Shown here piece by piece: positions 1 through 36,663 of a stretch of DNA of 64,000 nt. The notes below the pieces were generated by a model. It saw only the letters and a list, made by a program, of their open reading frames with translations. It made no database searches and had not been told where the DNA came from. The number at the start of each line of letters is the position of its first letter. Positions within the stretch are counted from its first letter, which is position 1. The stretch is taken from contig CAIOAT010000016.1 of NCBI GenBank assembly GCA_903856085.1, positions 8,581-72,580 of the forward strand, read 5' to 3'. The stretch is from Candidatus Omnitrophota bacterium. Lineage in GTDB: Bacteria; Omnitrophota; Omnitrophia; Omnitrophales; Aquincolibacteriaceae. The position numbers and the translations under genes were made by a program.

Positions 1-23
1 TCAGCAAGAGAGCTTCGGACATA

Positions 24-965
24 TTACATCCTCAATTTCTGGCGCATTTTATTCAGGACAATCTCGGAAACAAGGTTCAGGACAAACGTAAAAGTAAAAA
101 GCACGGCTCCGACTAGAAAAAGCGCGTAGTAGTGTTCGCTGCCCTGGGCTACGGAACCGAGCTCCGCAGCAATATTGGCGGTCATAGTCCGGACACTTGA
201 AAAAATATTACCTGTTACAAGTGCGGCATTGCCGGTCGCCATAAGCACGATCATCGTTTCCCCGAGCGCTCGCCCGAATCCAAGAATGATCGCCGCCGAG
301 ATCCCCGAAACTGCGGCCGGTACGACCGTTCCCCACACTGTCTGCCACTTCGTGGCACCTAAGGCATACGAGGCGTCCCGCAAGTCTTTGGGTACTGCCC
401 GCATCGCGTCCTCCGCAATGGTAATCATGATCGGCAGAACAGCCAGGGCTACCCCGCAAGCACCGACAAAAGCATTCAAGCGGAACTTGGTATGGAAAGT
501 ATTCTGAATAAAGGTCGCGATAAAAGCCAGCATCACAAATCCGATCACAACCGAGGGGATACCAGCCAAAAGCTCCAGTGTTGGCTTCAGAATTTCACGA
601 ACTTTGGAGGGGGCAAGTTCTGAAAGATAGATTGCACAGCCGAGTCCGAGAACGCCGGCAATGACCGTAGCGGGAAAAGCCACAAGAAGGCTGCCGCAAA
701 TAAGCGGAATGAGGGAATACTTTGGGACTTCGGATATCGATTGCCACATCATCTTGAAAACATAGTGTCCTTCCCAATCGTCGTACACCCATTTCCCAAT
801 CAGGTCAAATGGATTGGCCGTAAAAAAGAACCGCACAGCTTCTTTGAAAAGAAAAACAAAAATCAAGGCCATAATAAGCATCGACGAGATCCCTGCCAAA
901 AGCAAAAGCTTCTGGATCAGCCACTCTGAGAAATTCCCGCTTTTTTTCGTCAGTCGATGTCTCAT
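24..965 (-). CDS. pstC: Phosphate ABC transporter permease PstC
   Basis: 313-aa polytopic permease with ABC-transporter permease signature (EAA-like loop '...AIAEDAMRAVPKDLRDASYALGATKWQ...'); immediately downstream of pstS in the same orientation; next gene (pstA) appears to begin at window edge. Confidence 0.85.
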   Translation of the reverse strand: MRHRLTKKSGNFSEWLIQKLLLLAGISSMLIMALIFVFLFKEAVRFFFTANPFDLIGKWVYDDWEGHYVFKMMWQSISEVPKYSLIPLICGSLLVAFPATVIAGVLGLGCAIYLSELAPSKVREILKPTLELLAGIPSVVIGFVMLAFIATFIQNTFHTKFRLNAFVGACGVALAVLPIMITIAEDAMRAVPKDLRDASYALGATKWQTVWGTVVPAAVSGISAAIILGFGRALGETMIVLMATGNAALVTGNIFSSVRTMTANIAAELGSVAQGSEHYYALFLVGAVLFTFTFVLNLVSEIVLNKMRQKLRM

Positions 966-1048
966 TTTCCCCAGCTCATCTTAAAGGAAACAAGCGCCCC
1001 CAATGCGAGGGCGCCTGTTTCCCTTAATAATTTGGTTTCTTTACGATT

Positions 1049-1924
1049 CTACTTCTTCAGTTTCAATGGAACATACCCGATTTCTTCGACGATCTTCTGA
1101 CCTTCCGGACTCATGATCCAGTCCAGATAAGCTTTGATCTCGCCCTTGGGCTTAAAACCGGTGTACATATACAAATAGCGCCAAATAGGATACGTCCCGC
1201 TCCAGGCTGCTTCATAGTCAAGCGTTCCATCAGCCTTAACCGGGTTGATGGCCGGGGACTTATCATCCCTCTTCACGGAAAGGATCTTCACTCCCGGCTG
1301 CTTAATGTAATAAGCTGCGCCCCCGTAACCAATACCATTGGGATCCTTGGAAACCGCATTGGCAATCGCCGAGGTTCCGGGCATGGTCTGACAATCCGCC
1401 GCATAATCTTTGTTCTTGAGAACTTCTTCTTTGAGGAATGTATAGGTCCCGCTTGACGACTCACGGCAATACCGGAGGATGGGTTGATTGGGCCCGCCAA
1501 TTTCATTCCAGTTATTGATATTACCCATATAGATCCCCTGAATCTGTTTCAAGGAAAGTTCCTTGATAGGATTTGAAGCATTTACCACGATGGCCAAACT
1601 ATCCATCGCGACCTTGAATTCTTCAGGATAGTAACCGGCGGCTTTCGCTTTATCCATCTCGCTGGCCTTGATCTTGCGGCTGGCGTTCGCGATATCGGTA
1701 GTCCCATTGATCAGGGCTGCAATTCCGACACCTGAACCACCTCCGGTCACCTGGATCGCGGCTTCAGGGTGCTTCTGCATGTAGACTTCGGCCCACTTCT
1801 GCCCCATGACCACGATCGTGTCGGAACCCTTGACAGTGATGTTCTTCGCGGCGAAGGCTGACGGAATTATGGCCGCCAAAGCCATCACCAAAACACCCCT
1901 TATAACCCAACGCGTTGTTTTCAT
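1049..1924 (-). CDS. pstS: Phosphate-binding periplasmic protein PstS
   Basis: PBP-type protein with signal peptide (MKTTRWVIRGVLVMALAAIIPSAFA), 'GSDT' and 'GGGSGVG' motifs typical of PstS; start moved to ATG at 1924 preceded by GGAGAAG SD. Confidence 0.85.
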   Translation of the reverse strand: MKTTRWVIRGVLVMALAAIIPSAFAAKNITVKGSDTIVVMGQKWAEVYMQKHPEAAIQVTGGGSGVGIAALINGTTDIANASRKIKASEMDKAKAAGYYPEEFKVAMDSLAIVVNASNPIKELSLKQIQGIYMGNINNWNEIGGPNQPILRYCRESSSGTYTFLKEEVLKNKDYAADCQTMPGTSAIANAVSKDPNGIGYGGAAYYIKQPGVKILSVKRDDKSPAINPVKADGTLDYEAAWSGTYPIWRYLYMYTGFKPKGEIKAYLDWIMSPEGQKIVEEIGYVPLKLKK

Positions 1925-1996
1925 TTTAGCTTCTCCTTTTGACGCCTTCAGTTTAAATGAAAGCATCCTGGTTAGATGTAAAATTCCTGTAAACTC

Positions 1997-3583
1997 TTAG
2001 AACTTATACGTCATATCGAGCTGAAACCGGCGAACCGATTGATCCGTTTGCATACCCGTCGTATAAATGGAGTTTCTCTGAGTGATCGGTCGAACGAGGT
2101 AACACGCGCCATTCACGGTCAGATAATCGGTGAGGTTGTATCCCAACTTGATGACACTGCCATCTTTGTCAGCACCACCATAGTTATACCCGCCAAAGTC
2201 GCTATCATTAAAAGCGCCAGGTACAGAGTTTGCACCGATATACTTGTATTGGTAGCTCGTCTGCCAATCCCCCTTTTTCACGAGCTTCCCGAGCGTGAGA
2301 CCTAGCGACCAGGCATACTCGCCACCCTGCATCGTGTAATTTTGGGCCGCTCCAGTCTGAGCACCAATTCCAGATGTGTTGCTCATATTCCGCGCAAATT
2401 CAGCGAATGGTTTTACGGGAACACCGTAAGGATAGAGATTAACCTCCTGATACAAGCTCAGAACATTAAACTTTCCTGCCGCCAACCTAGATCCGTCAAT
2501 CGGATTTCCATTAGCGAAACTCGTAGCAGGAGTGCTTCCATTATAGGCATTCCAATTGGAGTTCTCGGCGTAATGCTGATAATTGTAAACAGAAAGTGCC
2601 GTAAGCGCATCCACAGGCCTTTCCATTCCGGGAACATAGAAAACGGGATTCAACCCAACTTGATAAGCGAACAGGTTGGCGTCTTTTCCCTGGGAAGGTT
2701 GATTTGCCACGCCATTAGCGGTGGCATAGGTAGCTGTATTCCCATTCTCCTGGAGGATGAATTGGCCCAAGGTAGCGTAGGCTTTAAGATCCAGGTTATC
2801 GGTCTTTAAGAGCCGCGCATCGATCTTTTCATAGGCACCTTCCGGTTTCAGGTCCCGGTCCCAGATCATATCGGTAGAACCTTTTTCGAAAGGATTGTTG
2901 AATTTACCGCCAGTAACCTCCAAACCCGAGACTGCCAAATCCCCGACGGGATTGATCTTGGCCCATTCCGGAGTGTAGGTTGCGTAAGCCTTTTCGATCC
3001 AGATGTTTTTGAAGGTGAAATCATTACCAAGGGTTTGATTCGTAGAGATGGGGTCGGTGTTACCGTTGGCCGAAGTCGAACCGCCGCTGGCCATCGAAAA
3101 ACCGACTTTCATTTCCGGATTGAATGTTTTTTCAAATCCATAGCGCAGGCGGATACGAAACCGGTTTCTGTCCGGCTGGTAAGTATTAACGCCCGCAGGA
3201 GCTGTCGTTCCATTCCAGCGATTACCGGTTAGGCCAAACGCCTCATATCTCAAACGAAGATCTCCGCTGAACTTGAGGTCCTTGAGCCACTTGTTGGCAC
3301 CGCCGGTCGAATCGCTCAAGCGCTGATTGAATTCGGCTTCACTCATCGGAGGAGTTGCTTCCACGCCGCTAGGAGCCACAGCGATCTTCCCGCCGTTACC
3401 TGCCTTGAGCGCCTGGATCTCTGATTTCTGCGCCATGACGGTCGACTGCAGATCGTTCATCTGTTTCTGCATGTTCTTGACCATATCCATGAGCTGCGCT
3501 TCATCCGCGAACGCCGCAGACGAAAAAGTCATAAGGCAAACGACTAAAATGCTCGCCAGTTTTGTGAAAGGGTGGTATTTCAT
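1997..3583 (-). CDS. Outer-membrane porin, probably phosphate-selective (OprO/OprP-like), with N-terminal coiled coil
   Basis: Signal peptide (MKYHPFTKLASILVVCLMTFSSAAFA), N-terminal coiled-coil segment, long alternating beta-strand region rich in G/Y/N, C-terminal '...YKF' aromatic terminus typical of beta-barrel OMPs; sits directly upstream of pstSC; start set to ATG 3583 with GGAGGAG SD (ORF track start is further upstream). Confidence 0.6.
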   Translation of the reverse strand: MKYHPFTKLASILVVCLMTFSSAAFADEAQLMDMVKNMQKQMNDLQSTVMAQKSEIQALKAGNGGKIAVAPSGVEATPPMSEAEFNQRLSDSTGGANKWLKDLKFSGDLRLRYEAFGLTGNRWNGTTAPAGVNTYQPDRNRFRIRLRYGFEKTFNPEMKVGFSMASGGSTSANGNTDPISTNQTLGNDFTFKNIWIEKAYATYTPEWAKINPVGDLAVSGLEVTGGKFNNPFEKGSTDMIWDRDLKPEGAYEKIDARLLKTDNLDLKAYATLGQFILQENGNTATYATANGVANQPSQGKDANLFAYQVGLNPVFYVPGMERPVDALTALSVYNYQHYAENSNWNAYNGSTPATSFANGNPIDGSRLAAGKFNVLSLYQEVNLYPYGVPVKPFAEFARNMSNTSGIGAQTGAAQNYTMQGGEYAWSLGLTLGKLVKKGDWQTSYQYKYIGANSVPGAFNDSDFGGYNYGGADKDGSVIKLGYNLTDYLTVNGACYLVRPITQRNSIYTTGMQTDQSVRRFQLDMTYKF

Positions 3584-3699
3584 AAGATTGGATCTCCTCC
3601 GGTTGAATGGGAATGGGGCAGAATTCTTTTCTGTCCGTTTGATTTTCATGCCGGAAGTATAGAAAACCCGTGTCAGGTCTCCATGATGGAAATGTAAAG

Positions 3700-3732
3700 A
3701 AATTGTAAGGAAAAAAGTGACGGCTTTCGGAT
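3700..3732 (-). promoter_or_regulatory. Candidate Pho-box-like direct repeats upstream of porin-pstSC operon
   Basis: TGTAAAG / TGTAAGG direct repeats with 11-bp periodicity (TTACA-type half-sites on the coding strand) ~120 bp upstream of porin start; pattern resembles PhoB/PhoP boxes; unverified. Confidence 0.2.
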
Positions 3733-3918
3733 GGAGCAAGGAACAACTTGCTAACAACCTGCTAGGAGCTAACATTGTGGACAAGATTCAGAAAAGCTCC
3801 CCCTCCCTGCAGGAAGAGGACTGGAATGGAGGCGTGGGATCACCTGAAGACTTCCCATTGGTAGCGCAGTTTCACCTCGACGCAATTACTTAGAGGGGAC
3901 CCCGTTTTTCAGGGCTTC

Positions 3919-4776
3919 TTAGTAAACCGCCTGCACAAATCTCTGTTTGTTGAGAGGCGGGCGTTTGTAACCTTTATCTTTCTGGCGCTTTGGAATGACG
4001 AGTTTCTTTTGGGTCACATCTCTATAGGGGATCTGAGCCAATAGATGTGTCATGCAATTCAGGCGGGAACGTTTTTTGTCGTTCGAGTCCACCACATGCC
4101 AGGGAGAATCCTTGGTGTCCGTATGTTCAAACATGACATCCTTGGCTTTTGAATATTCCACCCAGCGAGCGCGGGCTTCTAAATCCATCGGGCTGAGTTT
4201 CCAGCGCCGGGCGGGATCCTTGAGCCTTTCCTGAAAGCGCGCTTCCTGCACGGCATCGCTGACCGAAAACCAGTATTTAATGAGAATAGTTCCGGAACGG
4301 ATCAGTTCTTTCTCGAATTGCGGGCAAAAATCCAAAAAATCCCGGTACTCCGCATCCGTGCAAAAGCCCATCACGCGTTCGACGCCCGCACGGTTGTACC
4401 AACTGCGATCAAAAAGCACCACCTCCCCGGCGGCCGGCAAATACGCGGCATACCGCTGGAAATACCACTGTGTTTTTTCCCGCTCCGTAGGAGTTCCCAA
4501 CGCCGCGATCCGGACAATGCGCGGGTTCGTGAGTCCCGTTATCCGTTTGATCACGCCCCCCTTACCGGCCGCATCACGCCCCTCAAAAAGCACCACGACC
4601 TTGAGCCCCTTAAACTTGACCCACTCTTCCAATTTGACCATCTCGGTTTGCAGCCGCTCGATTTCCCGGTCGTAAATCTTGTTTTTAAGTTTCTTGGGCA
4701 GGCCGTCGAGCTTTCCGGATTTTTTCTTCAGGATCTTCCTTATTTCTTCTTTCACATGTTGATCCTTCTTGCCCAT
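3919..4776 (-). CDS. ppk2: Polyphosphate kinase 2 (PPK2 family polyP:NDP/AMP phosphotransferase)
   Basis: Walker A 'FEGRDAAGKGG', Walker B and PPK2 lid motifs; ~285 aa single-domain PPK2. Confidence 0.85.
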   Translation of the reverse strand: MGKKDQHVKEEIRKILKKKSGKLDGLPKKLKNKIYDREIERLQTEMVKLEEWVKFKGLKVVVLFEGRDAAGKGGVIKRITGLTNPRIVRIAALGTPTEREKTQWYFQRYAAYLPAAGEVVLFDRSWYNRAGVERVMGFCTDAEYRDFLDFCPQFEKELIRSGTILIKYWFSVSDAVQEARFQERLKDPARRWKLSPMDLEARARWVEYSKAKDVMFEHTDTKDSPWHVVDSNDKKRSRLNCMTHLLAQIPYRDVTQKKLVIPKRQKDKGYKRPPLNKQRFVQAVY

Positions 4777-4840
4777 AAGAATCCTCCGATCGTCTAAAGC
4801 CTTTTTACTTCTTTGAATGTTCCTGCCGCAAAACAGAGGT

Positions 4841-5398
4841 TCAGATCTTCACTTCGTTGGGGTAAGCGAGTTTCTTAAGCTCTTCTATCATTTGCTCGAC
4901 ATTTTTTGTTTCAGCGCTATCAGGGCCTATTTTTTTCAGACGAATATTCAGCGCCTTGTTGAGAATATCGATGGCGGCCGTGTATTTTTTTTGCATGGCA
5001 TAAGCAACACCAAGGTTAAAATAAATCGCCGCCATTTCCACGCCTTCTTTGTCCAACTTTTTAAGATCGATCAGGACAGCCAGCTTGTAGAGCTGCTCGG
5101 CTTCCGACGCACGCTTCAGGTACAAATAAAGATTTGCCAGATTATTCATGGTATCTGCGGCTTCCAGGCTGTCTTTCCCGTACTCCTCTTTCGCCACCTG
5201 AACGGCTTTTTCTGCGGCTTGAAGCGCTGCCGGCAAGTCCCTCGCTTCATTTGCGGCAACGAGCTGATCGTTCAAAGCTTGTATCTTTGCCGCACCTGCA
5301 CTGTGATCCTTCGCGAGCACAGGCTCCGCCTGCGCAGTAAGACAGATGAGAGCACTCAGAGTAAGCATTGAAATATAGCGGCATTTTTTCATCATCAT
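4841..5398 (-). CDS. TPR-repeat secreted/lipoprotein
   Basis: N-terminal signal peptide (MMMKKCRYISMLTLSALICLTAQA), three TPR-like helical repeats (…NNLANLYLYLKRASEAEQLYKLAV…, …YFNLGVAYAMQKKYTAAIDILNKAL…). Confidence 0.6.
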   Translation of the reverse strand: MMMKKCRYISMLTLSALICLTAQAEPVLAKDHSAGAAKIQALNDQLVAANEARDLPAALQAAEKAVQVAKEEYGKDSLEAADTMNNLANLYLYLKRASEAEQLYKLAVLIDLKKLDKEGVEMAAIYFNLGVAYAMQKKYTAAIDILNKALNIRLKKIGPDSAETKNVEQMIEELKKLAYPNEVKI

Positions 5399-5901
5399 TT
5401 TAAATCTCCGGATTCCTGAAACTATTTCTCTCCTTAAGACGCAGGATTGTAGTCCTTTGGAAAGCGGAAATCAAATCTTCCGAAGCTTTCTGATAGTTTT
5501 TACACATATTTATCATCACCGTCATGGGGTATTTACATAGAAATGCGAGACTTGGGTCAGAATAAAGAATAAAACAAGCTTGCGAAAGGGGATCAACCAT
5601 GATCAGCCAATTAGACTGCCTCGAAGACTTGATGGATTGGAATTCTTGCACCGAAATCAAATCGGCGCCTACCGCACGCGTGGGAAAGAGTTTTTTCCCT
5701 GTTTTTATGATCGAGTCCGCAACGACATCACCGGCCGGCAAAGAAATGGACTCGTGGCTTATCCGGTCCGGGCTTTCTCCCCAAGCAAGCCTTGCCTTCA
5801 GCCGGATCGGGATCTACACGGATTTTTCTTAGCCCTAATCCAAAAAGATCGCGAATCTTGCCTCTTATTTTGAACTTCACGGAACGTTCGGGGATCTGTG
5901 A

Positions 5902-6717
5902 TCAAGAGACGGGAACAAACTGGGCCTGAGCGGCTTCCCAGAGCTGACGGGCCAGATCTTTCCGCTGACCCGCTCTTATCGGCCTGTCGCCAAAAACAAA
6001 ACGCGCCTTGAAGGTCCTCATCCGAAGCAGGTCCTTCAAGTGCGGCATGAATTCCATATCGCCCCACCAGCAAACAGACCGGCTGGCCGGGGTTTCTTCC
6101 CGGGGCGTTCGATAGAAGATCGTAACAAAATGGACAGGATAGAGCCTGTCGGCGGCCGATCTAAAAAGCGCCGCATTAAAAGGAAGGATCCCGCTTCCTG
6201 CGCTGCTGGTTCCTTCCGGAAAAAACAAGACACCTTTCCGTCCCTCGAACGCCTCTTCGATCTCCCGGTTGACGCGGATCGCATCCCGGGCATTGTCCCG
6301 GTCCACAAAGATACAATCGAAAGCTTTGATCACGCTTCCAAGAAAAGGCCATTCCTCGACTTCCCTTTTTGCAATAAAAACAGCGTCAAGCTGGGTCGCT
6401 AGGGCGATGATATCGACATAGCTTAGATGATTGCTAATAATAACATAGGGGGACTCCGGCGGCGTCCCGCGAACAGTGATGCGCATTCCAAGCACGGCAG
6501 CTGAGGCACGGGCCCAGAATCTGAAAACGATCTTCCTCCAGCGCCAGCCGGCCGCAGGAAGAAGGAACCTTCTGAAAAAAATAAGAAGGTAGGTCAATAC
6601 AAGCACCGAAAAAATCAAAAAGATGCGGACCCGGGCTCGGATCGAACCCCGGAGGCTCTCTACGAAACCGGCTATTTCAGTTATGAAAGAAGTCAAAGGT
6701 CTTTTCATCGAGATCAT
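5902..6717 (-). CDS. olsA: Lysophospholipid/lyso-ornithine-lipid O-acyltransferase (PlsC/OlsA-like LPLAT)
   Basis: HX4D acyltransferase motif 'NHLSYVDI', 'FPEGT' motif, N-terminal TM anchor; overlaps the upstream GNAT gene (olsB-like) by tens of bp; exact start uncertain (ATG 6717/6708 or TTG 6795). Confidence 0.6.
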   Translation of the reverse strand: MISMKRPLTSFITEIAGFVESLRGSIRARVRIFLIFSVLVLTYLLIFFRRFLLPAAGWRWRKIVFRFWARASAAVLGMRITVRGTPPESPYVIISNHLSYVDIIALATQLDAVFIAKREVEEWPFLGSVIKAFDCIFVDRDNARDAIRVNREIEEAFEGRKGVLFFPEGTSSAGSGILPFNAALFRSAADRLYPVHFVTIFYRTPREETPASRSVCWWGDMEFMPHLKDLLRMRTFKARFVFGDRPIRAGQRKDLARQLWEAAQAQFVPVS

Positions 6718-7474
6718 CAATGTCGAGAAGTGTAAGAAAATCAATAGTGCCGAACGCGCGGTCCACGGCAGGTTCACTGCAGATCCGCGCCCCAAAATTC
6801 AGATAGGCCTTCAGCAAGCGAGGGATCGTCTTTTTTTTCAAGGGATACGGTGCCTCGAGAGGCTCCCCACATTCAAAATCAGGACAAACGCCAAGAAAAA
6901 TCTCCGGATGCAAATAGCCATGGGTGGATAAATAATCAAACGCATGCCAACCCTCACGGGGGTCCTGTTCCGTCAAAGAGGTGCAGCCGAAGAGGTACCG
7001 CTTCCCTTTCATCTCGAGATATTTCACAAGCCCCTTCCACAAGAGGAAAAGAACTTTGACGTTCCGATGCTCCTTTGCAATGCACGCGCGACCGATCTCG
7101 ATCCCGTTCTTCAAGTATGCGTTCGGGAACCTAGTAAAATCGAATTCCGCGGCAGAATAAAAACCAATATTCGCCTGCGCCATTTCGAAGGTTTGAAGAC
7201 GATAGGTCCCGACGGGCACCCCCGTCCTGTTCTCGCAGATAACAAGATGATCGCAATAGCGGTCAAAACCATCCTCGTCCTTACCGGACAAGTGCGACCG
7301 GAGAAGTCCCTCCTGCAGCTCCAGGTTAAAAACCCGATATCTTAAGCGGAGTACAGCATCCAGATCCGGTGAATCCCCTTTGAGAAAACGAATGTGGAAC
7401 CCTTTGTCCGGAGGAGCAGAGACAAGGTCCGAACGGACCTCCTGGCTTGCGCCTTTTTCCTGAACGGCGCTCAT
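6677..7474 (-). CDS. olsB: GNAT-family N-acyltransferase of the OlsB/hemolysin-like family (ornithine N-acyltransferase candidate)
   Basis: Sequence features of the PF13444-type GNAT ('...LRLRYRVFNLELQEG...', 'YLFGCTSL') and pairing with a PlsC-like gene downstream; start ATG at 7474 overlaps stop of PHP gene (ATGA). Confidence 0.55.
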   Translation of the reverse strand: MSAVQEKGASQEVRSDLVSAPPDKGFHIRFLKGDSPDLDAVLRLRYRVFNLELQEGLLRSHLSGKDEDGFDRYCDHLVICENRTGVPVGTYRLQTFEMAQANIGFYSAAEFDFTRFPNAYLKNGIEIGRACIAKEHRNVKVLFLLWKGLVKYLEMKGKRYLFGCTSLTEQDPREGWHAFDYLSTHGYLHPEIFLGVCPDFECGEPLEAPYPLKKKTIPRLLKAYLNFGARICSEPAVDRAFGTIDFLTLLDIDDLDEKTFDFFHN

Positions 7475-9231
7475 AAGCACCTCACCACAGATGGATTTTC
7501 AAAAAGTTCATTCCGCCGCTTAAAAAGAATCTTTTCTTGAGACTCATCCCCGCGATACTCCCCATCTGCGAGGTTGCAGAGATACTTCAGATATTTTTCA
7601 ACAGCCTCAAAAGTACCGTCTTCGGTATCGGGGAGATCGGCGCGGGAAACTTCCGGAGAAAACGTCACAAGACATTTGACATCCAGCATACGGGCCGCAA
7701 TAAACCCAAGCAATCCGATCGGCCCCGGCGTATCGATCACGATACGATCGGGATTCCATTTCTCGATCACCGAGAGCGCCCCGAGAACCGATGGAATCCT
7801 GAGCGAGAAACAACCGAAAAATCGTCTTCGAAGGAGCCCGATCATCGGCAGGTCGAGCGCCCCGGAACAACCCAGCGGCCTTCGCGGACGGGAACAGACA
7901 GCCACTCTGACAGACTGACCTCTGGCGAGGTTCCGCTTGGAGCGGAATTCTTCGAGATCCCTCAGCGACCTTACGGCATCCGAGAACCAGAGACTCCTTT
8001 CCGGGATTTTCGCCGACCTGGCCGGACATTCTTCATGGAACTCAAGGTCTTCCAACAGCCTCTTGTTATGGTTCAACAAACGGAGTGCAGCAAAGAACGG
8101 CGCACCGAGGAATGTGGTCGCAATAATGCCTTTTTTCAGCCAGCGGGCCTTTCCGGCACGCCCCTGCTTCGGCCCAAGAGCCTGGATCATGTTCCGGACG
8201 ATCTCATCGAGCAATATTGTCAGTTGTTTGTAAACAAGATCGATCCTCTGGACGGAGGAGAGGGAGCTATTCGAGGCATACCCTCGGAAAATACCAGAAA
8301 AGAATTTCCCGAGAACCTTATGAAAATTCCGTGGACTTCGTACAAGAAAAAATGAGAGGACGCGAAGTAATCCACCGTGGGATTTATTCCCCCGAAGCAT
8401 CCCGCCAATTTCGCGGGAGATGAACGCGGGGCTCTTTTTCCCAGCGAGATCACCATAAACGTGCCCCCCGATCAAGATAAAGCTCAAAGCCATGGACTTA
8501 TAATCGTGGTTACGGCCAAACCCGAATGTCTTTTTATCACGAAGAGATTGCAGAAAATCTTGCTTTGTCCTGCCAGAGGCCACCGTGAAGGTATCCCCGA
8601 TAAAAAGACCAGCATGATCATCCGACCCGCCTGTCAGTCCCTTAATCCAGCTGTCTTCCGAGAAAGGTTCGATCCGATGCTTGGCATGCAACCGTTCGAT
8701 ATCTTCGTGGGTCAAATGCTCGATGGCCTCGGTCCATTCCTGGTTATGACGGGTGGCATGAGCACCGTTCACACTTTCAAAAACATCGAAAAGCAAAATA
8801 AGCTTTTCAAGGCCGTCGCGATCAATCTTGCGATTCACGCTGAGCGTTGCGTGAGCAACCGAATAGGCGAGCCTTTCTGCACGGATATAATCCCTGAAAG
8901 CATAAATGTTCGAACGGAGCCCCAGGAGCTTCGCGAACTGTTTTTCTGTAAGATCGAAAACAAGGATGTGAACCTTGCAATGGTTCTCCGGGAAAACAAC
9001 CGAAAACTCACAACTAACAAAGGCTTCGGCGGGATACTTGTGGGCCAGACGGAGCGCTCCCTCAATAGAATTGTGGTCGGTCACCGTAACAAAATCCATT
9101 TTCTTGAATTTTGCAACGCGATAAATATGCTCGAGCTCCGTATAGGATTCACGGACCCCGAGCGCTTTCAACGTCCACTCATCTCCATCCAGAGAATACT
9201 TCGAATGCAAATGCAGATCGGCTCTAGCCAT
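7471..9231 (-). CDS. PHP-domain metal-dependent phosphoesterase with long C-terminal domain of unknown function
   Basis: N-terminus 'MARADLHLHSKYSLDG…VTDHN' is the PHP (polymerase/histidinol-phosphatase) metal-binding signature; start re-assigned to ATG 9231 with AGGAAAGGAA SD; stop overlaps olsB start. Confidence 0.6.
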   Translation of the reverse strand: MARADLHLHSKYSLDGDEWTLKALGVRESYTELEHIYRVAKFKKMDFVTVTDHNSIEGALRLAHKYPAEAFVSCEFSVVFPENHCKVHILVFDLTEKQFAKLLGLRSNIYAFRDYIRAERLAYSVAHATLSVNRKIDRDGLEKLILLFDVFESVNGAHATRHNQEWTEAIEHLTHEDIERLHAKHRIEPFSEDSWIKGLTGGSDDHAGLFIGDTFTVASGRTKQDFLQSLRDKKTFGFGRNHDYKSMALSFILIGGHVYGDLAGKKSPAFISREIGGMLRGNKSHGGLLRVLSFFLVRSPRNFHKVLGKFFSGIFRGYASNSSLSSVQRIDLVYKQLTILLDEIVRNMIQALGPKQGRAGKARWLKKGIIATTFLGAPFFAALRLLNHNKRLLEDLEFHEECPARSAKIPERSLWFSDAVRSLRDLEEFRSKRNLARGQSVRVAVCSRPRRPLGCSGALDLPMIGLLRRRFFGCFSLRIPSVLGALSVIEKWNPDRIVIDTPGPIGLLGFIAARMLDVKCLVTFSPEVSRADLPDTEDGTFEAVEKYLKYLCNLADGEYRGDESQEKILFKRRNELFENPSVVRCL

Positions 9232-9385
9232 AAATGATTCCTTTCCTGGACTCAAGATCTACCCAGAATCATTATCGACGATCAACATGATGGGAGTGTT
9301 TGGCGGAGGAAAATTCCGTGTAAAATCATTTTGAAACGACGTAATCAGCTCTGGGGAAACAGGTTAAAGAAACCCTGCCGAACGC

Positions 9386-11455
9386 TCACTGCAGATTTTT
9401 ATTGGCCTTGGGACGCTGAGGCTTGAGATCAAGGGGAAGCTGTTTGTCATGCAAAGCTTCGTTCTCAAGCGCTTTTTGGCAAAGGTACTCTTGAACACGG
9501 AATTTCTTTTCGCCCGCAGGATCCTTTTTTTGATAGGTCCCATCGGGAGAAAGCCCCCAAGCCTTCTGGTTATCCTTGAAATAATGATGGAGGAGCTGAA
9601 TGAGTTCTTTTTTGTTTTTTCTATCCTCCACAGGAAACATGAGCTCAAGACGCTTATCAAAATTCCTCGGCATCCAATCTGCGCTGGAAAGATAAACTTC
9701 GTCGTCCCCTGCGTTCGAAAAATAAAAAATCCGACTGTGTTCCAGGAACATATCGACAATACTCACCACCTCGATATTTTCACTCAGGCCTTTGACTCCT
9801 GGCCGGAGGCAACAGATCCCGCGAACATTCAGTTTTATCTGAACCCCTTTTTGCGAAGCGCGATAGAGAGCATCAATGATCTCCTTATCCACCAAAGAGT
9901 TCATCTTCGCAATTATGAGGCCGGAGCGTTCGGGGGAACTCTGCGCAGACTCCCGAAAGATCAACCGTAAAAGCTTCCGGCGTAACCCATAGGGTGCCAT
10001 TTCGAGCTTGGAAAAATGACCGGGGCTTGAGAACCCCGTCATGAGATTGAAGAAGGAACTGACATCCGCGGCAAACTCATCATGACTCGTAAAAAGATTA
10101 AGGTCCGAATAGATCTGAGCGGTTTTTTCATTGTAATTCCCGGTTCCAAGATGCAGATACCGCTTGATCCCTGCGGCTTCACGACGAACAACCAAGCAAA
10201 CTTTGGAATGTGTTTTCAGACCAACCACCCCATAAAGGATCGTAGCCCCCGCTCTCTCCAAACGTTTGGCCTCTTCGATATTCCGCTCTTCATCAAAGCG
10301 CGCCTTCAGCTCAACTAAGACGGTAACCTGTTTTCCCTTTTCCACTGCTTTTTCAAGAGCATTAATGACCGGCGAATGATTCCCAGTCCTGTAAAGCGTC
10401 TGTTTGATAGCTAAAACATCCGGATCTTCTGCGGCAGTCGAAACAAACCGAAGAAAAGCACTGAAAGAATCGTAGGGATAATGCACCAACAGATCTTTTT
10501 CCCTGAGCAATCCCCAAAGGTCACCGGCTTCCGTCATTTCCAGAACGGGTCGCGGTATCCATGCGAGCCGCTTGAACCTTTCGAACCCGGGCTGGAATGC
10601 TAGCTGAGAAATGCTTTTAAGATCAAGCCATCCCTCACTTTTAAAGATCTCATGTCCCTCAATGCCCATTTTCTGTTTCAAATGGTCGATCATGTCATCG
10701 GACGCATCGATCTCAAGACGCACGACCCGGCTTTCCTTTCTAGACCGCAGAGCCTCACTCATAAGTTTTGCTAGGTCTTCGTCCTTTTCTTCATCGATCG
10801 TAAATTCCGCGCAACGCGTCACCCTAAGGGACCCCTGACGCCCGATCATAAACCCGAGAAAAAGCTCCTGCGCAAAAAGACCGATCACGTCTTCGATCAG
10901 AATGAACGCATGGCTAGATTCCGAGGGAAGCATGATCATGCGCGGACAATTTTTAGGGATCTCAACCAAGGCGTAACGTGCGGCTGCGAGATTGGTGGAT
11001 TCTGTGAGTTCAAAAATACGGTAAAGACTCAGGTTTGCGAGGCTCGGGAAAGGCTGTTCTTCATGAACCGCGAGCGGTGTGAGGAGCGGCAAGAACTCCG
11101 TCAAAAAAAGGTTTTTAATGAACAGGAACTGTTTCTCGTTCAGGGCTTGCGGAAGGACTCGCACAATACCGTCCCCTTCCATTTCATGGACAAGAAGTTC
11201 CTTGAAATAAAGCTGCTGCTTATGGATCAAGGAAGACGCCTGCTGATAGATCTCCAGCAGAAGTGGGTCTGTTTCAGGGACGCTGGCAACGCGAACCATA
11301 AAAAATTCGTCGAAATTGGAGCTGACGATCCCGACAAACTTCAAGCGCTCCAGAACAGGATTCGAGATATCCATTGCCTCTGCCAGAACGCGGGCATTGA
11401 ACCGAATCCATGATAATTCCCGATCAAAATATTTTTCTTGAGGGATATTTTCCAT
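9386..11455 (-). CDS. ppk: Polyphosphate kinase 1
   Basis: N-terminal 'YFDRELSWIRFNARVLAEA' PPK1 signature, ~690 aa four-domain length, PLD-like C-terminal regions. Confidence 0.9.
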   Translation of the reverse strand: MENIPQEKYFDRELSWIRFNARVLAEAMDISNPVLERLKFVGIVSSNFDEFFMVRVASVPETDPLLLEIYQQASSLIHKQQLYFKELLVHEMEGDGIVRVLPQALNEKQFLFIKNLFLTEFLPLLTPLAVHEEQPFPSLANLSLYRIFELTESTNLAAARYALVEIPKNCPRMIMLPSESSHAFILIEDVIGLFAQELFLGFMIGRQGSLRVTRCAEFTIDEEKDEDLAKLMSEALRSRKESRVVRLEIDASDDMIDHLKQKMGIEGHEIFKSEGWLDLKSISQLAFQPGFERFKRLAWIPRPVLEMTEAGDLWGLLREKDLLVHYPYDSFSAFLRFVSTAAEDPDVLAIKQTLYRTGNHSPVINALEKAVEKGKQVTVLVELKARFDEERNIEEAKRLERAGATILYGVVGLKTHSKVCLVVRREAAGIKRYLHLGTGNYNEKTAQIYSDLNLFTSHDEFAADVSSFFNLMTGFSSPGHFSKLEMAPYGLRRKLLRLIFRESAQSSPERSGLIIAKMNSLVDKEIIDALYRASQKGVQIKLNVRGICCLRPGVKGLSENIEVVSIVDMFLEHSRIFYFSNAGDDEVYLSSADWMPRNFDKRLELMFPVEDRKNKKELIQLLHHYFKDNQKAWGLSPDGTYQKKDPAGEKKFRVQEYLCQKALENEALHDKQLPLDLKPQRPKANKNLQ

Positions 11456-11467
11456 AGTTTTGAAACT

Positions 11468-13030
11468 CTAAAGCGACGGGCCCGCGCCTTGCTTCAGATC
11501 GAGGGGTGCTCCAAAAACATCGGCGAACATGTCCCCTTTCCGTCGCAGGCTTTCCCGTTCAAGCGAAATATCCCCGATCTCTTTCGGCACCCAGATCGCA
11601 TAAGTGTCTTCCGAACGTTCCAGAGTAAACGACCGGATCTTCTGCTGGTGGCCGGTGTCCAAAGCGTCTGCAATGCGCAGGATGGAAGCAAGTTTTGAGA
11701 CGATTGCCCGGTCCGATTTCGCAAGAGACATGTAAGGTACGTGCGTTTCGCGCGGCGGCACACGGCGATGATACCGGACAACATTAGCGACAATATTCTT
11801 GTCGGTCCTCCTCAGCCCGAAGATCTCGGCGGCATCCACTAAATAATACGAATGCTTGTGGTGTCCCGAAGGAGAAACGTAGGTTCCAATATCATGTAAG
11901 ATACCGGAAACCTCGAGCAAAAGACGCTCGCGGGACCCCATGCCATGATCTCCCGCAAGCAGGTCATAAAGTTTCAATGAGAGTGAGGCCACGCAAACCG
12001 CATGCCCCTTGTCGTACATATATTTTGCCCCAAGGTGGTGGGCGGAATTAAGGACCTGCTTCGAGACGTCCGTTCTTCGGTAACCCGAAAAAAGCTGGGC
12101 CATTTCGAGCAAAAGACCGTCCCGAATACTTAATTTTGGGATAATGACCTCCTCCGCCTTGGTTTCATTTAAAAAATTCAAATAAAAAAGAAGCGCGGGG
12201 TAAAGGGACTCCGCATGCCCATAATCGAGAGAGTATTGCGCGGCAATCTCTTCGGGCGTCATTTTCCCCACCCGCCCCATAAAACTCACAAATTCTTTCT
12301 TTTCAAGAATGGTGAAACGGTCGAGAGTCTCCGGAAGAAGCTGCTGCGATACGAATCGCATATCTCCACCCAGAGCAACGAACGTATCGATCTGCTCCAT
12401 ACGAACTTCACGCGCCACGTTCTGTGCGATATCCCGGATACTCTTCTTCAGAACACGCTGTATGAGTCCCGCATCTTCTTTCCCGGCTACGGCCTGCTCG
12501 GGAAGCCTTACTGATCCTATCGGCAGGGTCCGCGTAACGCTCACCCGACCTTGATCCATGATGATCATTTCCGTACTGCCAGAGCCTACTTCGACGATCA
12601 GGCAATTCTTTTTTTCGAGATCGATCCTCCCCTCCAGCGCATGCTCGACCGCGATCAATTCGAGACGGTTTTCTTCCGGGCCCTCCAAGATCTCCACTTC
12701 GATGCCAGCGCGCACATAGATTTGATCGATGAAATTATCCCGATTCTGGGCCTCCCGGACAGCGCTCGTGGCGATCGCTTGGACTTTTTTGATTCCATAC
12801 GTATCGATCACAGACTTGAAGTCTCGGAGAATGTTCACACCCTGGCGCATGGAAGCACTGCTCAACCTGCCCGTTTTAAAAACATCTTTGCCGAAACGAA
12901 CCGGCTTTTGAAGCTGCTCCAAATAACGAATCTCGTTTTTGGCTCCAACCTCCGCAATCACCATGCGGATTGCAATGGTTCCGATGTCAATAACGGCGGC
13001 GATATGTTTTTGAATTTCTTGTTCAGGCAT
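11468..13030 (-). CDS. ppx: Exopolyphosphatase/guanosine pentaphosphate phosphohydrolase (Ppx/GppA) with C-terminal HD domain
   Basis: ASKHA-fold N-terminus 'AAVIDIGTIAIRMVIAEV', C-terminal HD motif 'ILHDIG'; immediately downstream of ppk1 as in canonical ppk-ppx operons. Confidence 0.85.
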   Translation of the reverse strand: MPEQEIQKHIAAVIDIGTIAIRMVIAEVGAKNEIRYLEQLQKPVRFGKDVFKTGRLSSASMRQGVNILRDFKSVIDTYGIKKVQAIATSAVREAQNRDNFIDQIYVRAGIEVEILEGPEENRLELIAVEHALEGRIDLEKKNCLIVEVGSGSTEMIIMDQGRVSVTRTLPIGSVRLPEQAVAGKEDAGLIQRVLKKSIRDIAQNVAREVRMEQIDTFVALGGDMRFVSQQLLPETLDRFTILEKKEFVSFMGRVGKMTPEEIAAQYSLDYGHAESLYPALLFYLNFLNETKAEEVIIPKLSIRDGLLLEMAQLFSGYRRTDVSKQVLNSAHHLGAKYMYDKGHAVCVASLSLKLYDLLAGDHGMGSRERLLLEVSGILHDIGTYVSPSGHHKHSYYLVDAAEIFGLRRTDKNIVANVVRYHRRVPPRETHVPYMSLAKSDRAIVSKLASILRIADALDTGHQQKIRSFTLERSEDTYAIWVPKEIGDISLERESLRRKGDMFADVFGAPLDLKQGAGPSL

Positions 13031-13038
13031 GCTGTTCC

Positions 13039-14031
13039 CTACTTTTTGGCCGCTTTAAAAACTTCATGGGCCATTTTGGCGGCTCCTAAAATAACCGCAT
13101 TATCCTTCAGTTTGGACGGGACGATTTTCACCACTTTGGCGAGGGGCTTAAGCGCGTAAGCTTCCATCTCACGTCTGACCTCAGGAAGAATGATCTTTCC
13201 CATCGCCTCCATCATTCCTCCTCCCAAGAGGATCAATTCCGGATTCAAAATGTTCACCACATTCGCTAGCGCAACCCCGAGCCACCGGGAACGGCTCCGG
13301 ATCAGCTCCTCTAACGCGATATCCCCCGCTTTGATAGCGCGGGACAAAGCACCGCTGCGGATTTTTTTTACGTTATAACCGATCTCTTCGAGAAGATGCG
13401 GGCACTTCTGCCGCAGCAAGAGGAACCCCGCCTCCGATGCAATAGCATTCCTGCCGACCAAAGCTCCGACTTTTTGGCGCGACGTTTCAAAATCAGAAAA
13501 AGAAGGAAGTGACAGAAATGTCTGGCCGATCTCACCAGCTCCTCCAGAAGCGCCACGGTAAAGATGTCCGTTGATGATGAGCGCCCCGCCGATACCCGTT
13601 CCTAGGAAAACCCCCACGACTTCCCGATAACCCCGCGCTGCGCCGAATTGCTGTTCTCCGAAAAGCCCCGCATTGGCATCGTTTTCAATAAAGACCGGTG
13701 TTTTCAGCTTCGCTTTCAGTTTTTCAGCAAGTGAATAATTCTTAAAAAAAGATACGTTGGAGGAGACTTTGACGATCCCTTTATAGATATCAATGATTCC
13801 AGGACAACCCACACCGATGGTTACAAGATCACTCAGGTCCGACCCGGTTTCTTCCAGAACTTCCTCGATCCCGTCAATGAGCTTGTTGAAAAAGAACCTC
13901 TCGCCGCGATTACCGTCCATCTCAAGTTTGACGGTCTTTTTTAAACTAAATTTCCTGTCAAAAAGACCTATCAGAATCTTGGTCCCGCCCAGATCGATGC
14001 CAAGGATGAACTTCTTTTTCTTGCCCGCCAT
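13039..14031 (-). CDS. ROK-family sugar kinase (glucokinase; possible polyphosphate-glucokinase)
   Basis: 'ILGIDLGGTKI' ASKHA phosphate-1 motif, ROK family Cys/His-containing middle region; start re-set to MAGKKKK (ATG ~14031, GGAGAG SD). PolyP specificity only inferred from ppk/ppx neighbourhood. Confidence 0.7.
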   Translation of the reverse strand: MAGKKKKFILGIDLGGTKILIGLFDRKFSLKKTVKLEMDGNRGERFFFNKLIDGIEEVLEETGSDLSDLVTIGVGCPGIIDIYKGIVKVSSNVSFFKNYSLAEKLKAKLKTPVFIENDANAGLFGEQQFGAARGYREVVGVFLGTGIGGALIINGHLYRGASGGAGEIGQTFLSLPSFSDFETSRQKVGALVGRNAIASEAGFLLLRQKCPHLLEEIGYNVKKIRSGALSRAIKAGDIALEELIRSRSRWLGVALANVVNILNPELILLGGGMMEAMGKIILPEVRREMEAYALKPLAKVVKIVPSKLKDNAVILGAAKMAHEVFKAAKK

Positions 14032-14279
14032 AGACTCTCCCCTTTCAAAATTGATTTCCATTATAATGGCTCAGGGAAGTTTTTATGTAAAGCATTTGTA
14101 AAGTCTTGGTGGCTCTATCCATTCAGACCACCTAAAAAGCCCTTCCAGAAATTCCGTAGAGAAATCCACAGGCCCCTATCTTCACACAAAACACAGGGTA
14201 TTCCTCGCGATCTTTTAACGCAAACAAGCCATCACATAAACCTCTGTGCGAATGAACACGTTTTTCACAGGAACTGTTT

Positions 14280-25985: not shown

Positions 25986-26119
25986 TTTTTGCCCTTTTCC
26001 AATGGTGGAAGACAACTCTTTAAGGTTTTATAAAAGTTTTTCCTTCTGATCTCACGGAAAGCTTAACTTCGTTGTGAAAACTCTGCATCACATCCCGGTA
26101 AAGATAATGTAAAAACAAT

Positions 26120-26177
26120 ATTTCCGGGGGGTTAGGACCTTTTATCGTTTGATAGCTTTTGCTATCCCCCGGGAAAT
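26120..26177. promoter_or_regulatory. Nested inverted repeat in divergent intergenic region (outer 12-nt arms ATTTCCGGGGGG/CCCCCGGGAAAT, inner GATAGC-tttt-GCTATC)
   Basis: Read directly from sequence; lies ~105-160 nt upstream of the giant gene start and ~260 nt upstream of the response-regulator start. Confidence 0.3.
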
Positions 26178-26391
26178 CCTTAACGACGAAATGCTCGAAC
26201 AGGAATCTGGGGCGCAAAGTCTGAATCTCTCTATTTGCTCTTCACTGTGCTTTTGAAATGCTCGCAGCAAGGCACATCTCTCCATTTCAAAAATTTCTTG
26301 GAAACCTTCCTTTCAGAAGTGTAAAGAGTTGGTAAAGCTTCTATCTGTTACGCTGAAACAGGTTATGTCCGATTTGAAACTCCTCCGATTT

Positions 26392-26419
26392 TTCAACCTG
26401 TAACGAACTGTGGTACAAT
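26392..26419 (+). promoter_or_regulatory. Sigma70-type promoter for the response regulator gene (TTCAAC-16 nt-TGgTACAAT, extended -10)
   Basis: -35 TTCAAC (26392-26397), 16-nt spacer, TG-extended -10 TACAAT (26414-26419); GGAG SD 6 nt upstream of ATG 26440. Confidence 0.45.
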
Positions 26420-27129: not shown

Positions 27130-27130
27130 G

Positions 27131-36279: not shown

Positions 36280-36392
36280 CGCTCTTCCTCCCTTTTGTTA
36301 GACACCCAGGACTGCCTTGCAACCGATTTTGCGGGTTCGCAGTACTGCTGAAGTCTTTATTTTTATTCAGAGGATCGAGGAACATTTTTCTA

Positions 36393-36575: not shown

Positions 36576-36663
36576 TTTGCAACTCCTTATTTTCTACTGT
36601 CCGGCCGTTGACCGCTCCTGCGTTCGATGAGAAGCGCAAAAGCCGCGCCCCTCTAACAACAAT

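Follow-up and report, generated by a model that had tools for sequence, protein, structure and literature searches.

Among the described phosphate (Pho) regulons, those closest to the locus considered here are the PhoPR system of Bacillus subtilis, whose PhoP repeats have the form TT(A/T/C)ACA with an 11-bp periodicity (PMC11870197), and the PnpRS-pst1 system of Streptococcus pneumoniae, in which a putative PnpR box, TTTACACAATCTTTACA, lies 92 bp upstream of pstS1 (PMC4913102). The PhoBR system acting on pstSCAB-phoU in Escherichia coli likewise exerts two-component control through 11-bp direct repeats, which there replace the -35 element (PMC11870197). Lipid metabolism is also drawn into such regulons, with lipid remodelling being PhoB-dependent in Sinorhizobium meliloti and olsF being preceded by a pho box in Serratia proteamaculans (PMC12971839). 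Here we describe a locus in a 64-kb stretch of the genome of an uncultivated Omnitrophota bacterium (this whole stretch is referred to below as the window), in which genes for phosphate uptake, polyphosphate metabolism and a predicted phosphorus-free lipid stand in one row behind tandem TTTACA hexamers. We consider it probable that this block is the core Pho regulon of the bacterium, with its transcription units standing side by side; the regulon so predicted is compact but basically ordinary.

The motif itself is best classed as a Firmicutes-type Pho box, as it has the same hexamer and the same 11-bp period as the B. subtilis and S. pneumoniae systems. The adjacent kinase is of the PnpS type and has the same layout of two membrane helices, extracytoplasmic domain, HAMP and PAS, and the regulator pair again stands beside the genes it would regulate. 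Unlike in the Firmicutes systems, the setting is a Gram-negative-type candidate phylum, an outer-membrane porin is included in the predicted regulon, and the members are physically gathered. Most of the predicted sites comprise two or three hexamers, as against the four reported as needed in B. subtilis (as cited in PMC11870197). As compared with E. coli, the repeat is TTTACA rather than CTGTCAT and the boxes are set back from the -10 element by a further one or two helical turns. The E. coli Pho regulon is scattered, has ppk-ppx at a separate locus, and is not known to include olsBA or ppk2. As with OlsBA of S. meliloti and OlsF of Serratia, a pair of N-acyltransferase and O-acyltransferase stands behind a Pho box here too.

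Gene families in the window were assigned with Pfam and NCBIfam profile searches. In the six-frame listing of open reading frames (ORFs), a row of minus-strand genes runs unbroken from 26015 down to 24, with the transcription order being a giant 3901-aa gene, ROK-Ppx-PPK1, PHP-OlsB-OlsA, TPR-PPK2, a Porin_5 porin and PstS-PstC. PstA, PstB and PhoU come next beyond the left end of the window, as seen in L085, a JGI metagenome contig which is 100% identical to window positions 1-15832 and reaches further left. The individual genes, in order of transcription and followed by the divergent regulatory pair, are:

14280-25985, minus strand: giant gene, 3901 aa, with a weak, degenerate NUDIX match near the C-terminus
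13039-14031, minus strand: ROK-family sugar kinase, 330 aa (Pfam ROK, E 2e-54)
11468-13030, minus strand: Ppx/GppA phosphatase with a C-terminal HD domain (Pfam Ppx-GppA, Ppx-GppA_III and HD)
9386-11455, minus strand: ppk1 (TIGR03705, 785.7 bits, cut-off 465.85; four PPK1 Pfam domains)
7471-9231, minus strand: PHP protein, 586 aa (weak Pfam PHP match; structure model)
6677-7474, minus strand: OlsB-like N-acyltransferase, 265 aa (Pfam Acetyltransf_5, E 7e-27)
5902-6708, minus strand: OlsA-like O-acyltransferase, PlsC-type, 268 aa, with one N-terminal membrane helix (Pfam Acyltransferase)
4841-5398, minus strand: periplasmic TPR protein, 185 aa, with a signal peptide (Pfam TPR_12 and related families)
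3919-4776, minus strand: ppk2, single-domain PPK2 (TIGR03707, 353.6 bits, cut-off 301.8; Pfam PPK2, E 3e-99)
1997-3583, minus strand: porin of the Porin_5 family, 528 aa (Pfam PF16930, E about 2e-40 to 3e-40)
1049-1924, minus strand: pstS, periplasmic phosphate-binding protein, 291 aa, with a signal peptide (TIGR02136, 248.9 bits, cut-off 206.6)
24-965, minus strand: pstC, phosphate ABC transporter permease (TIGR02138, 244.7 bits, cut-off 196.45; Pfam BPD_transp_1)
1-22, minus strand: first 7 codons of pstA (ATG at 22-20); L085 encodes PstA of 323 aa, then PstB and PhoU
26440-27129, plus strand: OmpR/PhoB-family response regulator (best NCBIfam model PhoB, TIGR02154)
27131-28903, plus strand: sensor histidine kinase (NCBIfam PnpS, NF046044)

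The genes which the first-pass annotation had named in 1-14061 are all present and all on the minus strand, with the qualification that its pstSC(A) is borne out in the window for pstS and pstC, pstA being represented by 7 codons with the remainder on L085. Across the window and L085, PstS, PstC, PstA, PstB (ABC_tran) and PhoU (Pfam E 3e-45) are encoded together, i.e., a PstSCAB-PhoU set. PPK1 and PPK2 score above their equivalog cut-offs, and the Ppx protein is assigned at the family level only (Pfam Ppx-GppA, 133 bits; exopolyphosphatase model, 174.8 bits, cut-off 307), Ppx and GppA activities being indistinguishable. The earlier description of the block as essentially the whole Pho regulon is too broad, as genes for alkaline phosphatase, phosphonate use and ugp are all missing from the cluster. 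The shared orientation of the genes is weaker evidence than it appears and says little by itself, because most genes of the window lie on the minus strand, with the GC skew being negative throughout.

In the intergenic regions, reading of the sequence revealed TTTACA hexamers repeated at 11 bp. A scan of the window for TTTACA-N5-TTTACA with at most one mismatch recovers 5 matches against 0.12 expected, a count reached by none of 100 shuffles (0/100), and with at most two mismatches 14 matches against 3.5 expected. All five sites of the stricter class are on the gene (minus) strand, 52-334 nt upstream of start codons: one each at pstS, the porin and ROK, and two at the giant gene. No match of this class is found past 26.4 kb, i.e., in the other 37 kb of the window. 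Additionally, a weight matrix was trained only on the sites of relatives and scored over the 128,000 positions of the window; it places the ROK, pstS, PHP and porin sites within the top 5 positions, and returns 17 sites of at least 12 bits against 3.2 expected. Thus, the shared Pho-box-like repeat, the search for which had been proposed as a check by the first-pass annotation, is found, far above chance and kept in relatives. The sites and their associated -10 hexamers are:

26320-26336, minus strand: distal Pho box of the giant gene, TTTACCAACTCTTTACA, one mismatch, within the divergent intergenic region, its distance to the regulator ATG being 104 nt and its orientation opposite to that of the regulator
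26097-26113, minus strand: proximal Pho box of the giant gene, TTTACATTATCTTTACC, one mismatch, 111 nt upstream of the ATG, with TAAGCT 31 nt downstream
14086-14102, minus strand: ROK Pho box, TTTACAAATGCTTTACA, exact, the top-scoring site of the window (22.0 bits)
14060-14065, minus strand: -10 hexamer TATAAT of ROK-ppx-ppk1, 20 nt downstream of the box
9308-9335, minus strand: Pho box of PHP-olsB-olsA, three hexamers TTCAAA-N5-TTTACA-N5-TTTTCC (17.3 bits)
9271-9276, minus strand: candidate -10 hexamer GATAAT of PHP-olsB-olsA, 31 nt downstream of the last hexamer
3693-3709, minus strand: porin Pho box, CTTACAATTTCTTTACA, one mismatch; L004 has TTTACAATTTCTTTACA at the equivalent place
3656-3661, minus strand: candidate porin -10 (TATACT), 31 nt past the box, kept in the window and L004
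1977-1993, minus strand: pstS Pho box, TTTACAGGAATTTTACA, exact, 52 nt upstream of the ATG (17.7 bits on the relatives-only matrix)

The ROK promoter combines its box with a perfect -10 hexamer and has no TTGACA-like -35 at the usual 17-nt distance from the latter; this layout is that of activator-dependent promoters. The box precedes the -10 by 20 nt at ROK and by 31 nt at the promoters of PHP, the porin and the giant gene. These values are one helical turn apart, and therefore the regulator would occupy the same face of the DNA at all of them.

Comparison with the relatives (labeled L003, L004, L083, L084, L086 and L087) indicates that the boxes and -10 hexamers are kept at 42-82% protein identity, with the spacers between them having diverged. 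At the ROK promoter, the window, L003 and L083 share identical TTTACAAATG(C/T)TTTACA and TATAAT elements, which L086 also carries; of the 20 spacer positions between box and TATAAT, only 5 are conserved among the window, L003 and L083. The box is identical or one base off in L003, L083 and L086, and degenerate in L084. The PHP box with its GATAAT is retained in four genomes, namely the window, L004, L003 and L083 (GATACT in the last), and the upstream flank of the porin box has diverged between the window and L004. For the giant gene, L086 has a proximal box, TTTACGGTTTCTTTACA, which likewise precedes the ATG by 111 nt and is followed by TAGTCT after 31 nt, and its distal box at the aligned position is an exact TTTACAGATTCTTTACA; the giant proteins of the two genomes are 40-46% identical over well-aligning regions. 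The giant gene of L084 has a one-mismatch box, TTTACATAGATTTTACC, upstream, with TAGCAT at 31 nt. Hence, the earlier suggestion that the giant gene would prove Pho-regulated gains support from two upstream boxes, both present in L086 and one in L084.

The presence of a PhoBR-like pair nearby, also part of the earlier description, is upheld by the profile scores. The best of the 71 models matching the regulator is PhoB (TIGR02154, 265.3 bits), with YycF/WalR being 58 bits lower, and the kinase scores 413.3 bits on PnpS (NF046044), the pneumococcal PhoR counterpart, which exceeds the cut-off of 400; on proteobacterial PhoR it attains 308.7 bits, below the cut-off of 334.2. The kinase is built of two membrane helices flanking a Cache-like periplasmic domain, followed by HAMP, PAS, HisKA and HATPase. 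In L086/L087 the regulator and kinase are 90% and 78% identical, respectively, to those of the window and are again divergent from the giant-gene homologue.

Several observations weigh against a Pho regulon under this pair. The regulator remains below the PhoB equivalog cut-off (265 versus 296.2 bits), and the kinase reaches 412 bits on WalK, level with its PnpS score yet far below the WalK cut-off of 725. Further, when read on the opposite strand, the motif conforms to the WalR-type consensus TGTWAH-N5-TGTWAH. With TTTACA being one base from the -35 consensus TTGACA, and the ROK promoter being readable as TTTACA-17-CATTAT, these scores could be accommodated by supposing that the genes are grouped by function and not co-regulated by phosphate, the hexamers being either -35-like elements or sites for another, WalR-like, member of the OmpR family. 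We regard this as unlikely, in that the hexamers always occur paired or tripled in 11-bp phase, the matches with at most one mismatch in the 64 kb lie only upstream of cluster genes, the kinase is above the PnpS cut-off and 313 bits short of that of WalK, and the regulator prefers PhoB over YycF/WalR by the above margin. The spacing of 31 nt to the -10 at the porin, PHP and giant promoters is too far for a -35, and the second TTTACA as a plain -35 element is ruled out by this spacing at the three promoters.

Other adverse points concern the individual units. The pstS box is without a convincing -10 hexamer and is absent in L004; TPR-ppk2 has no box in forward orientation, its only promoter being a sigma-70-like one beside an inverted array (see below); the -10 candidates of the giant gene (TAAGCT in the window, TAGTCT and TAGCAT in the relatives) are weak; and the about six genomes sampled as relatives all belong to one clade. 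As to the polyphosphate genes, ppk genes are phosphate-controlled in some bacteria. Pho control is standard for pst and known elsewhere for ornithine-lipid genes (PMC12971839), and it is not universal for ppk1, the transcripts of which in Methanosarcina mazei fall on starvation and rise on re-feeding (PMC6864096). Such behavior raises the alternative that the boxes are real and the polyphosphate units respond in the opposite sense, being repressed on starvation or primed for 'overplus' on the return of phosphate, which would also remove the seeming paradox of polyphosphate synthesis during starvation and might be reflected in the 20 versus 31 nt from box to -10 among the units. On the other hand, the ROK box, the best conserved of all, lies upstream of a perfect -10 lacking a -35, as in activator-dependent promoters, and both spacings place the regulator on the same helix face; this alternative likewise appears improbable to us.

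In the preferred reading, i.e., a core Pho regulon activated on starvation, the PhoR/PnpS-type kinase and PhoB-type regulator (26440-28903), encoded divergently from the giant gene, would sense phosphate. On phosphate scarcity the phosphorylated regulator would bind the tandem TTTACA hexamers spaced at 11 bp, and thereby switch on the giant gene, ROK-ppx-ppk1, PHP-olsB-olsA, the porin with pstSCAB-phoU (the extra box at pstS adding to this unit), and a gene for a 178-aa protein located outside the window (see below). The predicted outcome would be increased phosphate uptake via the outer-membrane channel and Pst, synthesis and mobilization of polyphosphate, and replacement of membrane phospholipid by a phosphorus-free aminolipid. 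The data show the gene families, the synteny, and the repeat with its statistics, placement and conservation; we infer the adjacent regulator as the box binder, activation upon binding, phosphate limitation as the signal, and the amino acid of the lipid.

The arrangement as a whole is also shared with the relatives. The nearest genomic relatives by the PHP protein are the Candidatus Omnitrophota metagenome-assembled genomes L003 and L004, with 80-82% identity. A relative at 79% identity has an identical row of giant gene (3836 aa), ROK, Ppx, PPK1, PHP, OlsB, OlsA, TPR, PPK2, Porin_5, PstSCAB and PhoU. At 48% identity the row consists of a giant gene with NUDIX, a small gene, ROK, Ppx, PPK1, a 179-aa gene, PHP, OlsB, OlsA, two TPR genes, Porin_5, PstSCAB and PhoU, with no PPK2. 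L004 is without ROK-ppx-ppk1 and PPK2, and on one related contig a histidine phosphatase replaces the giant gene. The TPR protein occupies the same slot in all relatives in one or two copies, and homologous giant genes occur at the same position. Synteny of this kind persists to 42-48% identity of the PHP protein, and the cluster is therefore an inherited trait of an Omnitrophota clade with local gain and loss.

This bears on the view that the block is a genomic island, a complete phosphate-scavenging module taken up by horizontal transfer; the first-pass annotation had called it an island-like module. Its compact one-direction layout might be so explained, as might the variable content, with PPK2 missing from the 48%-identity relatives and both ROK-ppx-ppk1 and PPK2 from L004, and the placement of the 178/179-aa gene at different positions in different genomes. 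Against it, the GC fraction is 0.48-0.53 across the cluster and equal to that of the flanks, the window lacks tRNA genes, and the scanned proteins include neither an integrase nor a transposase. The flanks hold an aldehyde dehydrogenase gene together with housekeeping genes (citrate synthase, aconitase, isocitrate dehydrogenase, MutY, RsmB and PepA), among them genes of the TCA cycle, DNA repair and rRNA modification. The gene order being kept in Omnitrophota from 82% down to 42% PHP identity fits vertical descent with local gain and loss. An island is hence very improbable. In marine picocyanobacteria and SAR11, Pho functions together with phoBR are gathered in one region which is hypervariable and thought to be horizontally exchanged. 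Unlike those regions, the present cluster is without an island signature and is conserved within its clade.

The transcription units implied by these data are the giant gene, ROK-ppx-ppk1, PHP-olsB-olsA, TPR-ppk2, the porin with pstS onward, orf77 on the opposite strand and, outside the window, the 178-aa gene. The intergenic gaps within ROK-ppx-ppk1 are 8 and 12 nt; within PHP-olsB-olsA the genes overlap by 4 and 32 nt, with the olsB ATG overlapping the PHP stop codon by 4 nt in a translationally coupled arrangement. Further elements bearing on these units, with no matches being returned by an Rfam scan of the window, are:

26392-26419, plus strand: sigma-70-like promoter of the regulator, TTCAAC-16-(TG)TACAAT
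5599-5832, plus strand: orf77, candidate gene of 77 aa, opposite to the cluster, preceded by the array below and the ribosome-binding site AAAGGGGA; called in public assemblies
5499-5537, plus strand: array of four hexamers in 11-bp phase, TTTACA, TTATCA, GTCATG and TTTACA (17.4 bits on the relatives-only matrix)
5474-5446, minus strand: sigma-70-like promoter of TPR-ppk2, TTGATT-17-TACAAT
3788-3820, minus strand: hairpin of 10 base pairs downstream of ppk2, terminator-like, with a T-tract (tail GCTTTTCTGA)
971-1035, minus strand: GC-rich hairpin in the pstS-pstC spacer, 20 uninterrupted base pairs, fold -39.8 kcal/mol

The terminator-like hairpin divides TPR-ppk2 from the porin/pst unit. The pstS-pstC hairpin is exceptionally stable in RNA folding (z = -6.7; equally stable shuffles 0/200) and is probably an intra-operon attenuator or mRNA stabilizer setting the ratio of binding-protein to permease transcripts. 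The array at 5499-5537 is flanked by the divergently transcribed TPR gene and orf77, and CAGAAT follows it after 20 nt; it may alternatively serve the divergent TPR-ppk2 promoter. A homologue search of the protein collection with orf77 recovered identical copies only and no diverged homologue; a 113-aa minus-strand ORF at 5400-5741, which has no family match in Pfam or NCBIfam, was set aside as antisense to orf77, the frame preferred by gene callers. Another plus-strand site, at 5813-5829, has the sequence TCTACACGGATTTTTCT, which is similar to the PHP box. A palindrome, GATAGCAAAAGCTATC, at about 26150-26170 (minus strand) separates the two Pho boxes of the giant gene; it is partly kept in L086 and may be the site of another regulator.

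As several of the mechanical ORF starts were too long, starts were revised from the sequence. Those of the porin, PHP, OlsA, OlsB and the giant gene match independent gene calls in L085 and the relatives. The porin start was revised to the ATG at 3583 after GGAGGAG, which yields a signal peptide, and the L085 call is also of 528 aa. The pstS start was moved from 1966 to the ATG at 1924, after AAGGAG; the resulting 291 aa agree with the call in the relatives and with one of the two gene calls for the contig, the other being of 305 aa. The ROK start was revised to the ATG at 14031 after GGGGAG, with support coming from the relatives only (the L003 ORF has the equivalent ATG); an alternative ROK ATG at 14061 falls within the -10 hexamer.

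Closer inspection of individual proteins leads to more cautious names for some of them. The porin had been described as OprP-like; it gives no match to Porin_O_P (the OprO/OprP family) even at E<=10, and its only family-level match is Porin_5, which places it outside the OprO/P family. What suggests a role in phosphate uptake is solely its fixed position upstream of pstS together with its Pho box. Similarly, the ROK protein had been put forward as a possible polyphosphate-utilising sugar kinase, but it resembles ATP-dependent glucokinases: its nearest solved structures are the ATP-dependent ROK glucokinases 3vov, 2qm1 and 3vgk, and on the polyphosphate-glucose phosphotransferase model NF045942 it reaches 54 bits where the cut-off is 250, over the N-terminal half only. 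The CxCGxxGC zinc motif was not found in its sequence. The sole argument for a link to polyphosphate would be the operon with ppx-ppk1, which is conserved in Omnitrophota and Victivallales. The best NCBIfam models are ornithine N-acyltransferase for the OlsB-like protein (122 bits, cut-off 350) and lyso-ornithine lipid O-acyltransferase for the OlsA-like protein (141 bits, cut-off 300). By family the two genes are an aminolipid synthase pair, with ornithine as a candidate head group; as compared with the OlsBA of ornithine-lipid synthesis, these proteins are well below the equivalog cut-offs.

The PHP protein comprises a PHP phosphoesterase domain (residues 1-240), a helical linker (244-395) and, of a GT4 glycosyltransferase, only the N-terminal Rossmann half (413-555). 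Its AlphaFold model has a predicted local distance difference test (pLDDT) value of 80.8, exceeding 90 over most of residues 1-240, with one hydrophobic helix in the middle region. Foldseek searches retrieve RNase AM/TrpH (7ug9, E 3e-6) and BAD_1165 (3e0f, E 9e-4) for the PHP part and, for the C-terminal part, the N-terminal halves of BshA, PglA and UDP-GlcNAc 2-epimerases of the GT-B fold. Pfam PHP on its own is sub-threshold (23 bits versus a cut-off of 26.4), and a sequence search of the PDB with the PHP profile gave nothing. In an alignment of 40 homologues the metal-ligand positions HxH, DH, E, H and DxH show little or no variation. The PHP fold in the model and the conserved His, Asp and Glu ligands in the alignment together identify the domain as a PHP-domain phosphoesterase. 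Glyco_transf_4 matches weakly at 444-532 of the 594-aa ORF, and the C-terminal donor-binding half of GT4, Glycos_transf_1, is absent from the protein, which is accordingly short of a full GT4 enzyme. Alignments covering 94-96% of the protein match it to the N-terminal ~530 residues of PHP-GT4 proteins of ~820 aa, which continue into a complete GT4 glycosyltransferase. The short form of 586-588 aa is kept down to 48% identity and therefore is not a recent pseudogene.

Members of the wider PHP-GT4 family, at about 25 of 80 loci from a dozen phyla, are found near PhoB-like regulators, pst, ROK-ppx-ppk1 or olsBA. For example, ROK-ppx-ppk1 is divergent from the PHP-GT4 gene in three Victivallales genomes, olsBA is divergent from it in Denitrovibrio, and several loci have pstS or pstC nearby. 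In 12 of the 80 loci an OmpR-type regulator is encoded no more than 10 kb from the PHP-GT4 gene, and all 10 of those tested best match a PhoB model, with 197-257 bits; as these neighbors were chosen by similarity to the regulator of the window, the association is a lead and not a measured enrichment. TTTACA boxes upstream of PHP-GT4 genes in other phyla are inconsistent, with good matches only in L050 and L053. By eye, the three Victivallales loci (L006, at ~9880-9965, L009 and L078) share TTACA/TAACA-like hexamers in the ROK/PHP-GT4 intergenic region, with offsets of 0, 33 and 55 that fit an 11-bp phase; these may be a Pho-type box in another phylum.

In marine bacteria, the phosphoesterase PlcP and the GT4 glycosyltransferase Agt swap phospholipid for a phosphorus-free lipid (PMC4796936). 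As compared with that pair, the partner here has a PHP fold and half a glycosyltransferase. In Desulfovibrio alaskensis, glycolipid formation when phosphate is limiting requires the Agt homologue Dde_3613. A joint reading of these points, which we put forward only tentatively and regard as rather doubtful, is that the PHP protein could be a membrane-associated phosphoesterase, induced by the Pho system, which would remove the phosphate head groups of phospholipids and so take the part of PlcP with a different fold. The glycosyltransferase half would have been lost in the clade, with OlsBA in its place making an aminolipid instead of a glycolipid, and the ~820-aa PHP-GT4 protein would remodel lipids in anaerobes as one polypeptide and belong, so far unrecognised, to the Pho regulon. 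In the same reading, the giant and 178-aa proteins would be starvation-induced envelope components.

The giant protein has an N-terminal anchor and ~8-10 hydrophobic segments. Its Nudix box, at residues ~3500-3525, is degenerate (E-x5-E-x7-RGFLEEL versus G-x5-E-x7-REUxEExGU), and the NUDIX domain may be inactive or of different activity. No other domain was recognisable with Pfam, and a PDB sequence search gave a marginal NUDIX match only. The C-terminal 1199 aa have 13 relatives among 1.84 billion representative proteins; with the N-terminus, a metagenome scan found nothing and a word-indexed homologue search two weak matches. In the Omnitrophota giant proteins named 'Archaeovorins', NUDIX is reported to be among the domains regularly found (bioRxiv 10.1101/2023.11.21.568195). 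The present protein is like them in being a very long, membrane-anchored Omnitrophota protein with NUDIX, and unlike them in being much shorter (3901 aa) than the very long proteins on which that study centres, in having no glycosyl hydrolase, peptidase or methyltransferase by Pfam, and in belonging to a narrow family of 13 relatives. The giant gene of the window stands behind Pho boxes, a link which a term search did not find in the Archaeovorin study.

The 178-aa protein is encoded on L085:

L085 1094-1750, ~2.2 kb beyond the left end of the window past phoU and convergent with phoU: secreted 178-aa protein with no Pfam family

Its gene is preceded by a Pho box, TTTACACGCTCTTTACG, with one mismatch and TATAAT 22 nt downstream. 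The protein is 48% identical to the product of the 179-aa gene located between ppk1 and PHP in L083 and L003; given this homology, it is a conserved member of the cluster that has moved within it.

Additional genes were noted around the cluster in the relatives. In L084 (6650-7528) a CHAD-domain gene lies directly upstream of the PHP gene, divergent from ROK-ppx-ppk1; CHAD proteins are associated with polyphosphate granules. Conserved small ORFs occur between the giant gene and ROK/PHP in L003 (3210-3416), L004 (8138-8359 and 8472-8666), L083 (4155-4561) and L086 (18165-18782). They are of two types, one of ~74 aa with YAYCExCTDEV and one of ~59-68 aa with PY.(L/F)REGR...FSG; most relatives have both, with only the second having been seen in L003. 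A tblastn search found no copy of the small ORFs of L003 and L004 in the window, and by eye there is a faint remnant at ~14130-14270. Elsewhere in the window, the GC fraction falls to 0.44-0.45 at 36000-40000, where ORFs have no family match; this segment adjoins a 979-aa glycosyltransferase (GT92, GT2, TOD1/MUCI70; 38641-41580) and a sulfotransferase (41577-42218), and may be a glycan-modification region of different origin.

A literature search found no description of a phosphate response in Omnitrophota. What is new here is the phylum, the occurrence of a Firmicutes-type box in this lineage, the consolidation over ~33 kb from the 178-aa gene to the kinase, and three unexplained members. For the Omnitrophota, which are uncultivated and widespread in sediments and groundwater, the locus offers a concrete predicted regulon with a candidate regulator pair, and its motif can be used for scanning genomes and metatranscriptomes. 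The gene set predicts polyphosphate turnover and phosphorus-free membrane lipids in the phylum, and the PHP/half-glycosyltransferase, giant and secreted 178-aa proteins are marked out as probable phosphate-starvation proteins. Beyond this phylum, the link between PHP-GT4 and Pho genes is a lead to a possibly overlooked lipid-remodelling enzyme in anaerobes.

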